DNA of 64,000 nucleotides from Spartobacteria bacterium. GTDB lineage: Bacteria > Verrucomicrobiota > Verrucomicrobiia > Chthoniobacterales > UBA6821. Below the pieces are notes generated by a model. The model was given only the letters and a program-made list of their open reading frames with translations, was not told the DNA's origin and searched no databases. The position numbers were made by a program, and so were the translations under genes. Where the stretch lies: NCBI GenBank assembly GCA_947482345.1, contig CANKJN010000003.1, forward strand, positions 1,922-65,921, written 5' to 3'. Shown in pieces: positions 20,789 to 24,267 of this stretch; within the stretch, counting starts at the first letter, position 1, and every line of letters begins with the position of its first letter.

Positions 20789-22429
20789 ATGGCAGCTAAA
20801 CAACTCCAGTTCGACGAGACCGCACGCCACGCACTCCTGCGCGGCGTCGAGAAACTCGCCAAGGCAGTCAAGGCAACGCTTGGACCCTCGGGTCGCAACG
20901 TCATCCTCGACAAGAAATTCGGCAGCCCCACGATCACCAAGGACGGCGTCAGCGTCGCCAAGGAGATCGAGCTCGAGGATCCCTTCGAGAACATGGGCGC
21001 CCAGCTCGTCCGTGAGGTTGCTTCCAAGACCAGCGACATCGCCGGCGACGGAACCACCACTGCGACCGTTCTCGCCGAGGCCATCTACAAGGAAGGCCTC
21101 AAGAACGTCACCGCCGGTGCCAACCCCACCTCGCTCCAGCGCGGCATCAACAAGGCCGTCGAGGCCGTTGTCGCCGAGCTCGCCCGCATCTCCAAGAAGG
21201 TGAAGGACAGCTCCGAGATCGCGCAGGTCGCCACCGTCTCCGCCAACTGGGACAAGACCATCGGCCAGATCATCGCCGACGCGATGGAGAAGGTCGGCAA
21301 GGACGGCACCATCACGGTCGAAGAGGCCAAGACCATCGAGACCTCCCTGGACGTCGTCGAGGGAATGCAGTTCGACAAGGGCTACCTCTCCCCGTACTTC
21401 GCGACCAACGCGGAGGCCATGGAGGCATCCCTGGACAGCGCCTACATCCTCATCCATGAGAAGAAGATCAGCTCCCTCAAGGACCTCCTTCCTCTCCTCG
21501 AGAAGGTTGCCAAGAGCGGCAAGCCCCTGCTCATCATCGCTGAGGACGTCGAGGGCGAGGCCCTTGCCACCCTCGTGGTGAACAAGCTCCGCGGCACCCT
21601 TCAGATCTGCGCCGTCAAGGCCCCCGGATTCGGAGACCGCCGCAAGGCCATGCTCGAGGACATCGCCGTCCTCACCGGCGGCCGCTGCATCACCGAGGAT
21701 CTCGGCATCAAGCTCGAGAACATCACCCTCGAGGACCTCGGCCGCGCCAAGCACATCACCGTCGACAAGGAGAACACCACCATCGTCGAGGGATCCGGCA
21801 AGAGCTCTGACATCCAGGGCCGCGTCGGACAGATCCGCCGCCAGATCGAGGAGACCACCAGCGATTACGACCGCGAGAAGCTCCAGGAGCGCCTCGCCAA
21901 GCTCGCAGGCGGTGTCGCCGTCATCAACGTCGGAGCAGCCACCGAGACCGAGATGAAGGAGAAGAAGGCCCGCGTCGAAGACGCCCTCCACGCCACCCGT
22001 GCGGCGGTCGAGGAAGGCATCGTCCCCGGAGGAGGCGTCGCCCTCATCCGTGCGCAGAAGGCCCTCGACACGCTCAAGCTTCACGGCGACGAGCAGGTCG
22101 GACTCGAGATCGTCCGTCGTGCGATCGAGGCACCCCTCCGCCAGCTGGCCACCAACGCCGGCAAGGAAGGCGCCCTCATCGTCCAGGAAGTCAAGAAGGG
22201 CAAGGGCAACGAAGGCTACAACGTCGCGACCGACGAGTACGTCGACCTCGTGAAGGCCGGCGTCGTCGACCCGACCAAGGTCACCCGCAGCGCCCTGCAG
22301 AACGCCGCTTCCATCAGCGGACTCCTGCTCACCACCGAGGTCACCATCTCGGATGTGCCTGAGAAGGAGAAGGCCCCTGCCATGCCGCCCGGAGGCGGAA
22401 TGGGTGGGATGGGCGGAATGGACTACTAA
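20789..22429 (+). CDS. groEL: Chaperonin GroEL
   Basis: 546 aa with full GroEL motifs and a GGM-repeat C-terminus ([12 protein letters not shown]). Confidence 0.97.
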
Positions 22430-22466
22430 GTCCGACTCCCACGCTTCTCTAAGAAGTTACAGCAGC

Positions 22467-22500
22467 AGCCGGGTCAGAAATGACCCGGCTGTTTCTGTTT
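22467..22500 (+). terminator. Rho-independent terminator of groESL
   Basis: Stem AGCCGGGTCA, loop GAAA, stem TGACCCGGCT, followed by GTTTCTGTTT. Confidence 0.75.
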
Positions 22501-22581
22501 ATGAGGTATAGCGGGGGCTTGGAGAGCGGTTTAGACTGTAGGCTGTTAGGCTGTAGGATTTGCCAGTAAGTCTACAAAAGG

Positions 22582-22609
22582 TTGCAAAAAAAGCAATTAT
22601 GTGTAGAGT
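22582..22609 (+). promoter_or_regulatory. Candidate promoter of the AbiE cassette (TTGCAA-16 nt-TAGAGT) with a flanking imperfect inverted repeat
   Basis: Hexamers at 22582-22587 and 22604-22609. The ATG at 22619 would give a near-leaderless mRNA. GTCTACA/TGTAGAG half-sites flank the promoter, a possible AbiEi operator. Confidence 0.3.
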
Positions 22610-22618
22610 CTATCTCAG

Positions 22619-23155
22619 ATGCAGCCCCTCAAAAAGCTGGCAATGACCTTGGATTCCCTTGCCAGCAGGGAGCACTCACTCTTTGCCTCTTCAGATCTGA
22701 GGGCGGCATTCGAGAAGTATGATCAACTGCCAGTCCTGCTCTCCCGTGCAGTCAAGGCTGGTCTCCTCAAGAGGATCTGTCGTGGCATTTACCTCTATCC
22801 TAAGGGGGGGTATCCCATGGGGGACCTTCTCTTCCATACGGCGGCCCGCTTACGGGCCGATGAGTTCAACTATATCAGTCTGGAGACGGCATTAAGTGAT
22901 GCCGGACTGATATCCCAGATCCCGATGAATTGGATTACCATCATGTCCTCGGGCAGAAGCCATACCATTGATTGCGGCGAGTTTGGGCACATCGAGTTCA
23001 TCCATACGGAGCAACGTCCCGAGGAGATCTGCGGGGAACTCGCCTACGATCCCGCGCGCCATCTCTGGAGGGCTTCGGAGAAGCAGGCCCTGCGTGACAT
23101 GAAAATGACCCGGCGAAGCATGGACCTGGTCAGTATGAGGAAGGAGACTGCATGA
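22619..23155 (+). CDS. AbiEi-family type IV toxin-antitoxin antitoxin / transcriptional regulator
   Basis: 178 aa with a winged-helix-like N-terminus (AVKAGLLKRICRGIYLYP). 4-nt ATGA overlap with the downstream AbiEii-like gene. Confidence 0.7.
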   Translation: MQPLKKLAMTLDSLASREHSLFASSDLRAAFEKYDQLPVLLSRAVKAGLLKRICRGIYLYPKGGYPMGDLLFHTAARLRADEFNYISLETALSDAGLISQIPMNWITIMSSGRSHTIDCGEFGHIEFIHTEQRPEEICGELAYDPARHLWRASEKQALRDMKMTRRSMDLVSMRKETA

Positions 23156-24024
23156 GTTCGGCGACACTCTTCAATTCCCTCGTTGACGAGGCACTCAAGT
23201 CGCGTCCCGAGTTAGCACTCCTGCGTCCCGTCGTGGAGAAGGAGTTGCTCCATCACGACATTCTTAGGGAGATGAGTCAGGAAGGACTGCTCTCCAGCCT
23301 CACCTTCATCGGCGGCACTTGTCTGAGAGCCTGCTATGGCTCTACGCGTCTCAGCGAGGATCTCGATTTTACCGGAGGGAACGATTTCAAGCGCTCCGAT
23401 CTCATGGAACTGGGGATGGTGCTCAGCGAAACTATCGGCACCCGCTACGGACTGAAAGTCAGCGTGAGCGATCCCGTCAGGACGGAAGGGAAGGTCAGCA
23501 CCTGGAAGATGAGTGTAGAGACCTGTCCTGGTCGCAAGGATCTTCCTGCACAGCGCATCCATCTCGATATCTGCGCCATCCCCAGTCACGACCCCCGCCC
23601 CATGATGTTGCGTACCCTCTATGGCGTCGATATGGGGACCTCCGGTCTCATCCTTCAAGCCCAGAGTAGGGAGGAGATCCTTGCAGACAAGGTGATAGCC
23701 TTGGCATTCCGCGAGGGGCGAATCAAGAACCGTGACCTCTGGGACATCGTCTGGCTCCAACAGCAGGGAGTGGAACTCCCCGTTCAACTGATCCCGCTCA
23801 AGATCCACGACCACCGCCGCTCCAAGGACGAGTTTCGATCACTCCTGCTGGAGAGGGTGGGGGAGTTGAGAAAGAGCGAGGCGCTTAGGAAAGACTTCAT
23901 CAAGGAGATGAGACGATTCCTTCCCGTGGCCACGGCGGCCCAGACCGTGGAACAGGAACCTTACTGGCGGTATTTGACTCAAGTTATTGGGGAGGAAGCG
24001 GAGAAGGCGCTGGCTATTCTCTAA
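23152..24024 (+). CDS. AbiEii/AbiGii-family nucleotidyltransferase toxin (DUF1814)
   Basis: 290 aa with the pol-beta NTase motif [22 protein letters not shown]. Confidence 0.8.
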
Positions 24025-24046
24025 GGAACCGCGGTTCCCTAACCCA

Positions 24047-24202
24047 ACCAAGGTCACCCGCAGCGCCCTGCAGAACGCCGCTTCCATCAGCGGACTCCTG
24101 CTCACCACCGAGGTCACCATCGCGGACGCTCCTGAGAAGGAGAAGGCCCCTGCGATGCCACCAGGTGGCGGAATGGGTGGAATGGGCGGAATGGACTACT
24201 AA
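24047..24202 (+). pseudogene. Duplicated groEL 3'-end fragment
   Basis: Encodes [51 protein letters not shown], nearly identical to the groEL C-terminus. The copy continues through a second terminator. Confidence 0.85.
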
Positions 24203-24233
24203 GTCCAAGCCTAGCCTAAAAAGCTCAACAGAG

Positions 24234-24267
24234 AGCCGGGTCAGCAATGACCCGGCTCTTTCTGTTT
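24234..24267 (+). terminator. Second copy of the groEL terminator
   Basis: Stem AGCCGGGTCA, loop GCAA, stem TGACCCGGCT, then CTTTCTGTTT. Confidence 0.7.

Follow-up and report, generated by a model that had tools for sequence, protein, structure and literature searches.

The 3' end of groEL and its transcription terminator occur twice in direct orientation on a 64,000-nt stretch of contig CANKJN010000003.1 from a Spartobacteria bacterium, the whole of which is called the window, and a two-gene AbiE toxin-antitoxin (TA) cassette lies between the copies. The features of the locus are as follows.

20789-22429, forward strand: groEL, 546 amino acids (aa), intact (Pfam Cpn60_TCP1), the last 161 nt lying inside repeat copy A.
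22269-22565, forward strand: copy A, the upstream target copy, with the groEL 3' end, a type-A spacer, the terminator hairpin (22464-22493) and a post-terminator tail that includes GGTTTAGACTG (22528-22538) and TAGGCTGTTAGGCT (22539-22552).
22566-22618, forward strand: putative abiE promoter/operator region, the conserved cassette start being at GTCTACAAAAG (22570-22580).
22619-23155, forward strand: abiEi, antitoxin/regulator, 178 aa (Pfam AbiEi_4, 36.1 bits; PADLOC AbiEi, 200.7 bits).
23152-24024, forward strand: abiEii, nucleotidyltransferase toxin (DUF1814), 290 aa (Pfam AbiEii, 108.7 bits; PADLOC AbiEii, 344.3 bits).
24025-24038, forward strand: GGAACCGCGGTTCC, a palindrome of 14 nt lying after the abiEii stop and before the groEL remnant.
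24042-24267, forward strand: copy B, the downstream target copy, with a dead groEL remnant (24042-24202, frame kept up to the stop), a type-B spacer and the terminator hairpin (24230-24261).
24268-24379, forward strand: haplotype H2 of the native post-groEL DNA, collinear both with copy B and with the site in the related contig L193, which has a single copy.

The strict repeat comprises 22269-22500 (232 nt) and 24042-24267 (226 nt), which are 88% identical and exceed the 30-bp criterion for target duplications used by Furuta et al. 2010 (PMC2853133) in their survey of restriction-modification (RM) genes. The original prediction had given 22274-22500 and 24047-24267; the repeat itself was confirmed, while both copies proved to begin 5 nt earlier than given. 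The scattered coding substitutions and the replaced spacer it described were also found. The coding part of the repeat, 161 nt, is 94% identical with 7 synonymous codons and 2 amino-acid changes, and the stop-to-terminator spacer, which holds a 6-nt indel, is of a different sequence type in each copy. The terminator stem is identical, and 0 chance matches to the terminator motif were expected from shuffled sequence. Weaker homology extends copy A to about 22565 and copy B on into native DNA to about 24379; the extended repeat is about 260-300 nt and the target size 230-300 bp overall. The tail of copy A past 22500 is homologous to native post-terminator DNA of the relatives L196 and L012. The repeat, which is the groEL end, is present in two copies only within the window.

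The sequence from the groEL stop through the terminator forms one long predicted hairpin (z = -4.4 to -6.5) with an outer stem that begins directly 3' of the stop, located at 22431-22525 and 24204-24285 in the window, 11643-11725 in L012, 1920-2005 in L100 and 9955-10035 in L196. The outer stems vary by module type yet pair (CTCCCACGCT/AGCGTGGGAG, AAGCCTAG/CTAGGCTT and GTTCCTCCTCTTCC/GGAAGAGAGGAAC), and the hairpin may be a conserved structured 3' untranslated region of groEL. The module had no Rfam match, and RNAalifold recovered the terminator stem alone, the outer stems not aligning; an attC-like or Rfam-known structure was thus not supported. A 71-aa open reading frame (ORF) with a TTG start (23987-24202) begins in the end of abiEii and continues across the remnant in frame with groEL; it is unlikely to be a gene, although a GroEL C-terminal peptide could result if it were translated.

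The Pfam matches of both cassette genes exceed the cut-offs of 25 bits (AbiEi_4) and 22.5 bits (AbiEii). The antitoxin gene comes first and overlaps the toxin gene by 4 nt (23152-23155). By gene content and bicistronic order the pair would be a type IV TA module of the AbiE family, in agreement with the earlier description of a two-gene AbiE module unaccompanied by integrase or transposase. The insert (22566-24041) is 1,476 nt, far below the 20-kb limit of Furuta et al. 2010, and contains both genes and the putative promoter; the cassette, from this promoter to the stop codon, occupies precisely the interval between the copies. Inverted repeats (TCTACA..TGTAGA and TTGC..GCAA) at 22570-22612 in the promoter/operator region would constitute an operator/promoter for autoregulation. 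The region is conserved in AbiE cassettes at the unrelated loci L101, L103, L109, L162-L165 and L176, where the conserved cassette spans about 54 nt 5' of the abiEi start, including the operator-like inverted repeats, to the abiEii stop. Inclusion of the putative promoter/operator led to rejection of a retro-copy of abiE mRNA as the source. Palindrome GGAACCGCGGTTCC is present, absent or doubled, depending on the strain.

Contigs of the species itself were found by exact-protein look-ups; these and the other contigs and records compared are given here by L-numbers. Contig L193 is 98-100% identical to the window over groEL and the genes 5' of it, dnaK (18339-20297) and groES (20459-20752), and has a single target copy in which groEL, a B-like spacer and the terminator are followed by the native DNA found after copy B. 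Window positions 24042-24379 correspond to L193 9813-10156 with 82.6% identity, and a three-way alignment with the L193 target gave 208/242 for copy A and the target, 260/311 for copy B and the target and 205/233 for the two copies. The alignment indicates that the window equals the L193 arrangement plus 1,773 nt, the sum of the cassette and one extra target copy. Thus, L193 would represent the empty site required by Furuta et al. 2010, and its order of groEL and one terminator is that which the original prediction had proposed to seek in related genomes. The earlier view of the locus as an insertion with duplication of the groEL 3' end and an undamaged groEL is supported, and the single-copy site is in a near-isogenic strain. 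The L193 spacer is a hybrid of A and B types.

In all AbiE cassettes found at groEL (window type, L013, L014, L016, L100, L102, L105, L190-L192, L195 and L197) a remnant follows that starts at the same groEL position, with a 3' end that varies (full length, 140 nt or about 68 nt). A second and unrelated cassette, composed of a small ORF and a PIN-domain toxin, lies at the same point after groEL in L015 and L102, and the remnant belonging to it has a start displaced by 26 nt into groEL (nt 27 versus nt 1 for AbiE). Both cassettes are stacked in L102 in the order groEL, PIN cassette, remnant, AbiE, remnant and native DNA. Contig L194, tried as an empty site, was rejected as a deletion scar in which the first 16 nt or so of abiEi, together with the abiE promoter, are joined to the Fic upstream region. 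No strain was found with a duplicated groEL end but without cargo. Across strains the cargo after groEL consists of AbiE, PIN modules, HigB/HTH, Fic, HEPN/MNT, Phd/PIN, an MmeI-type enzyme or a nuclease-helicase, beyond which the conserved Fur-Suf genes resume. The post-groEL DNA is therefore a hypervariable TA/defence hotspot in this clade. The groEL remnant is absent with hotspot cargos other than the AbiE and PIN cassettes.

Recombination was evident inside the repeats. The window and the L013/L014 remnants have the AbiE junction and the first 56 nt in common and carry different alleles beyond; in L013/L014 a GGGGGATG microhomology joins the remnant to sequence upstream of DUF3422, and these contigs lack the nuclease-helicase block (24446-27902 in the window). 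One remnant 3' breakpoint with a small insertion (CTCACCACC joined to TGRACAAAGCGGATTAGGCT) follows the PIN cassette in L015 and AbiE in L195, L197 and L105. The two allele types are reciprocally mixed in gene-attached copies: A coding with A spacer in the window and L012, A-type coding with a B-like spacer in L195 and L193, and B-type coding with an A spacer in L105. Since copy-B-type coding sequence ends the functional groEL of L105, the differences are mostly synonymous. Both copies are therefore alleles in circulation within the species complex, which does not agree with the expectation that one of them is foreign. The related idea that all gene-attached copies are of type A, copy A having arrived with the element, was refuted by the B-like spacers of L195, L190, L188 and L193. 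Breakpoints at many positions are the signature of homologous recombination and not of a fixed crossover site. Of the two routes offered in the original prediction, homology-driven recombination at the repeat is demonstrated by the mosaics; site-specific insertion is not supported, in view of the scattered breakpoints, the lack of a junction motif and the unrelated duplications that bracket the same family elsewhere.

The same bracket was found at other loci. A metagenome scan yielded the best 80 loci encoding AbiEii relatives (67-96% identical), few of which adjoin groEL. Direct repeats of 39-557 nt bracket 15/52 AbiE loci, or 13/43 de-duplicated locus groups, compared with inverted-repeat brackets in 1/52 and direct repeats at 4/123 shifted positions, a crude control (13/43 versus 4/123, Fisher p = 5e-6). 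The bracket repeats are locus-specific and unrelated between loci, for which reason the flanking repeats were rejected as one element family; the repeat of L103, the only locus tested for uniqueness, is unique to its own locus. The brackets of L163, L119 and L135 span the 3' end of an upstream co-oriented gene. In tight brackets 0-28 nt separate the toxin stop from the downstream copy, and 9-32 nt separate the upstream copy from the operator, with no common motif at either junction across loci. These tight boundaries could reflect a more specific process, or alternatively could result from later deletional trimming. Several brackets are nearly identical (96-100%) and are read as young. In L162 (3559-7071) the order is repeat, AbiE, repeat, AbiE, repeat, with a unit of 1,609 nt that is 96% identical and one abiEii seemingly disrupted; this is tandem amplification of the whole unit of repeat and AbiE. 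A Phd/PIN cassette in L190 (12484-13487), L191 (12768-13746) and L195 (13444-14809) is bracketed by direct repeats of 110-141 nt that are 79-82% identical, with a geometry as tight as that of AbiE (gaps of about 23 nt on the side of the toxin stop and of 50-75 nt on that of the antitoxin start). The bracket thus recurs in a group of uncultured freshwater bacteria and across three unrelated TA families: AbiE, the PIN cassette and Phd/PIN.

No integrase or transposase was detected with Pfam among the large ORFs scanned across the window, which encode housekeeping or defence proteins only, and no tRNA was found in the window. The gene tables of the related loci examined likewise contained no integrase or recombinase. 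By these scans mobility genes appear to be absent in and beside the insert, as Furuta et al. 2010 require. The locus does not resemble a DNA transposon or insertion sequence, given that there is no transposase, that termini are neither conserved nor inverted and that the duplications are 39-557 nt. Neither does it agree with an integrase and att sites, no tyrosine or serine recombinase having been found in the window or related loci, and there is no common crossover core, as remnant starts are cassette-specific, mosaic breakpoints scattered and repeats elsewhere unrelated. The window has no IntI-like ORF, and the flanking repeats are local target copies and not one attC family. A larger island bounded by a third repeat copy or a distant integrase was rejected because the window holds two copies only and no recombinase. 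A phage vehicle was also rejected, no close AbiEii relative being found on viral contigs. The window encodes a ComEC/Rec2-type DNA uptake channel at 827-3286 (Competence, DUF4131 and metallo-beta-lactamase domains), which suggests that the organism may take up DNA and lends weak support to a transformation route.

A plasmid origin was tried and rejected: 1,348 plasmid matches cover the groEL fragment alone, with about 77% identity, and represent a truncated groEL beside an ISCR-like transposase that is unrelated to the locus. In one such record, L198 (NZ_CP073081.1, 271366-271527), an unannotated groEL 3' fragment 77% identical to the remnant lies just 5' of the ISCR-like transposase; in L198 and about 1,348 plasmid records the fragment is near sul1, blaAFM-2 and ble on resistance plasmids, a familiar and unrelated kind.

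An artefact of assembly (a chimeric contig or mis-joined repeat), named in the original prediction as a reason to abandon it, was considered. The short contigs L004-L006 and L008 do break within the repeat. However, contigs from several independent studies and different assemblers span both copies (L001/L011, 72 kb; L002; L007), the copies differ by 12%, and diverged versions of the arrangement are present in related lineages. The independent contigs and the divergence between copies exclude an artefact for practical purposes, and its probability is negligible. The short contigs L009 and L010 were tried as evidence of circular forms and rejected as uninformative, since, judging from the coordinates, they end where a de Bruijn graph would break at the part common to both repeat copies.

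With moderate confidence, the architecture is attributed to recombinase-free insertion with long target duplication, followed by spread through homologous recombination and retention through TA addiction. The founding event would be a one-ended recombination, for example the single crossover of a circularised fragment comprising target and cassette, or an equivalent illegitimate or replicative event, in either case probably preceded by DNA uptake. Only the groEL side is conserved between strains in the hotspot, so that one-ended events are expected to dominate; furthermore, the cargos do not cut DNA, which makes a cargo-independent route more likely. With one-anchor DNA in E. coli, 56/60 integrants arose by single crossover of a circle with duplication of the 109-950-bp anchor (PMC3240628). 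A Campbell-type single crossover could well have been the founding step or the means of spread; the original prediction of such an insertion is accordingly retained as a viable sub-mechanism with experimental precedent (PMC3240628).

The upstream copy completes groEL, leaving the essential gene unharmed, and the downstream copy is a dead remnant joined to the original downstream DNA. In the proposed mechanism the cassette, positioned between groEL and the remnant, would carry its own homology arms, both of which would match the one groEL end present in any relative. A double crossover of RecA type could then insert the cassette (as in L102), swap it, amplify it (as in L162), stack it or loop it out. 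The repeats would persist and diverge because loss of the TA pair by recombination between them is counter-selected; retention of repeats diverged to 74-88% is best explained by an addictive cargo. A report on Streptococcus suis describes AbiE as stabilising an integrative and conjugative element (PMC11062541).

Several points weigh against this interpretation. The founding event is inferred, and no circular form can be deduced from the contigs. An AbiE-at-groEL strain without remnant, the donor in the circle model, was not found among the related contigs. Contig L193 could be a loop-out product instead of a virgin site, as its mosaic spacer is the expected leftover of recombination between copies A and B, although either origin fits the model. 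Both groEL cassettes start within a few nt of one point in the post-terminator tail, and about eight loci have no more than 0-28 nt between the toxin stop and the downstream repeat. The crude control for enrichment and the addiction activity of the AbiE pair in the window, which is assumed from family membership, are further weaknesses. Finally, all data are metagenome contigs, and a recombinase encoded elsewhere in the genome could act in trans.

The last possibility is the basis of a rival explanation in which an integrase supplied in trans uses the groEL 3' end and terminator as an att site, at which modules akin to cis-mobilisable elements (CIMEs) accrete in tandem. A conserved gene with direct repeats at its 3' end, the tandem accretion in L102 and the start of two cassettes at nearly one point are as expected from such a process, and the 56-75-nt identical stretch together with the identical terminator stem could hold a core. 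It is nonetheless improbable, since no integrase was found in the window or any related locus examined, the remnant 5' ends differ by cassette (nt 1 versus nt 27), the mosaic breakpoints are scattered, the AbiE family is bracketed elsewhere by unrelated sequences of 39-557 nt with no common motif, and other cargos at the groEL hotspot have no remnant. A second rival, in which the groEL 3' region was duplicated locally in tandem long ago and cassettes landed later between the copies so that the bracket is incidental, would account for the remnant 5' junction shared by all AbiE-at-groEL strains, which makes the arrangement old, and for the 12% divergence of the copies. This explanation is also quite unlikely: the remnant start differs between the two cassettes, each of which has its own remnant in L102; the cassette fills the inter-copy space exactly from promoter to stop; and exact bracketing recurs at many unrelated loci and in three TA families, with no cargo-free duplication in any strain.

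The remaining rival is a dedicated and novel process in which, for example, staggered breaks tens to hundreds of nt apart are filled in, and which might be promoted by cassette proteins or by a host factor recognising minimal TA operons. Minimal TA operons would then form a distinct mobile class that inserts by a dedicated mechanism with long variable duplications, independent of homology or a classical recombinase, and the duplication would provide built-in homology arms for amplification, excision and reinvasion. The tight boundaries at many independent loci (0-28 nt past the stop, 9-32 nt before the operator) are consistent with this proposal, as are the unrelated targets, the variable repeat length, the several young brackets of 96-100% identity, the lack of a remnant-free donor at groEL and the common insertion point of the two groEL cassettes. 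Against it, there are no conserved termini or target motif, and the bracketing of three unrelated TA families argues against a function encoded by the cargo; to our knowledge, neither AbiEi/AbiEii nor PIN/Phd proteins have DNA-joining activity. Deletional trimming and one-ended recombination explain the same facts by known processes (PMC3240628). Both the dedicated process and the distinct mobile class are thus judged unlikely, and recombinase-free insertion with host recombination and addiction is preferred.

Beyond copy B the window contains a separate variable block of the hotspot.

24446-27902, reverse strand: low-GC ORF of 112 aa (24446-24784) and a 1013-aa protein (24861-27902).

The GC content of the block is 35-45%. 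The 112-aa ORF belongs to no known family, and the 1013-aa protein has an Mrr-like nuclease, an SF2 helicase and five HA domains, resembling the nuclease-helicase part of fused restriction enzymes without the methyltransferase. An approach from the downstream side, by exact look-up of DUF3422, retrieved the same strain type only. The nearest genome representatives among the matches listed are metagenome-assembled genomes of Verrucomicrobiota with 90% and 87% GroEL identity, and no duplicated groEL end was found among the best 80 GroEL relatives listed (GTDB), L037 aside; the species itself was not in that list. In L037 (Omnitrophota) a second GroEL-like C-terminal stretch (13601-13849) lies about 2 kb past groEL and is probably a second chaperonin gene or paralogue and not a remnant.

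Low-complexity intergenic repeats typical of the lineage include TAGGCTG-type octamers and 7-nt microsatellites (CTGATTG/CTGGTTG and CTCGACT, up to about 18 units), the latter located between TA cassettes. They lie at 10469-10503, 22539-22558 and 24269-24288 in the window and at 12668-12699, 13398-13471 and 14290-14420 in L015. The TAGGCTG-type motif was rejected as a recombination site because it is of low complexity, is also present in the unrelated spacer at 10469-10503, and has a count in the window that is not significant. In TA islands of related organisms the cassettes are separated by an intergenic repeat family of roughly 100-270 nt with the imperfect hairpin GGCACTTGCCG-CC-CGGCAAGCAGTGCC, copies of which are in L101 (1134-1393, 2618-2802, 4905-5190, 8795-8913 and 9075-9137), L015 (12632-12662 and 13343-13397) and L188 (11120-11217 and 15844-15965), with a weak copy in the window (62783-62929). 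A sequence of the repetitive extragenic palindrome (REP) type, a miniature inverted-repeat transposable element (MITE) and a recombination site are candidates for the family. Elsewhere in the window, a KaiC homologue (632 aa) is followed by a 232-aa KaiB-domain protein (50033-52622) in this non-cyanobacterial genome, and a 459-aa ORF (16847-18226) that is conserved in related contigs fuses a 16S rRNA adenine dimethylase (KsgA/RrnaAD) with a NUDIX hydrolase.

How small defence and TA modules move without a recombinase of their own is a long-standing gap. The same footprint around cargos that do not cut DNA (AbiE, PIN and Phd/PIN) points to host recombination and addiction-based retention as the common cause. 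At groEL, the end of an essential gene is usable as a target without harm, and the duplicated flank is a portable homology arm. The locus offers single-copy, filled, stacked, amplified and scarred states in close strains, which together constitute a concrete comparative and experimental system for tests of mechanism.

The architecture is of a known and poorly understood kind, documented earlier for RM genes. Insertion with long target duplication was reportedly described for these genes by Nobusato et al. in 2000. Furuta, Abe & Kobayashi 2010 found the pattern in all RM types and enriched over ordinary genes: RM gene complexes were inserted with duplications of 30 to about 420 bp and without mobility genes, mostly in naturally competent species (PMC2853133). 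That survey noted amplification through the repeats, tentatively connected insertion with DNA breaks made by the cargo and proposed a cycle of invasion, amplification and release, most steps of which had no experimental evidence (PMC2853133). As in those insertions, the groEL locus has a complete putative addiction complex without mobility genes, long and variable direct repeats, and a target that is single-copy in the empty-site genome; the repeat sometimes overlaps the 3' end of a neighbouring gene, and tandem amplification through the repeats was proposed for the RM complexes. The target and cargo size, considered unusual in the original prediction, thus match insertion with long target duplication (PMC2853133), and the region after groEL is a general TA/defence hotspot. 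The cargo differs in that it consists of TA modules (AbiE type IV and PIN-type) that do not cut DNA, so that the double-strand-break explanation suggested for RM genes is inapplicable. Further differences are the essential-gene end in the target, the stacking of two cassettes and the heavy reshuffling of the repeats by allelic recombination. For TA systems, insertion with long target duplication was not found to be reported in the searchable literature.

Campbell-type insertion-duplication (Amarir-Bouhram et al. 2011, PMC3240628) gives the same product, with an anchor duplication of 109-950 bp and regeneration of the gene end if the anchor includes that end. Those experiments used a plasmid circle, whereas the present element is a minimal operon without replicon or backbone, and no circle was observed. 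At the att sites of integrative elements, cis-mobilisable elements accrete in tandem, for example at the 3' end of fda in Streptococcus thermophilus. Integrase-less modules, a conserved gene whose 3' end carries the direct repeats, and tandem stacking are common to both; however, cis-mobilisable elements have short conserved att cores and a known integrase, in contrast to the long, locus-specific and variable repeats with no integrase seen here. Integron cassettes are likewise small, often encode TA systems and are arrayed with repeated structured sites between them, but at groEL no IntI was found, the repeats are local target copies and the cassette junctions are inside groEL coding sequence. 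In the minimal mobile elements of Neisseria, transformation and homologous recombination exchange alternative cassettes at a site with conserved flanks. A report on E. coli (PMC10121019) describes defence-island hotspots that lie between core genes and are free of integrases. The post-groEL hotspot resembles both in having alternative cassettes at one site and no mobility genes. Flank duplication is a feature of neither, whereas at groEL the flank is duplicated and moves along with the cassette, to which it adds a second homology arm.

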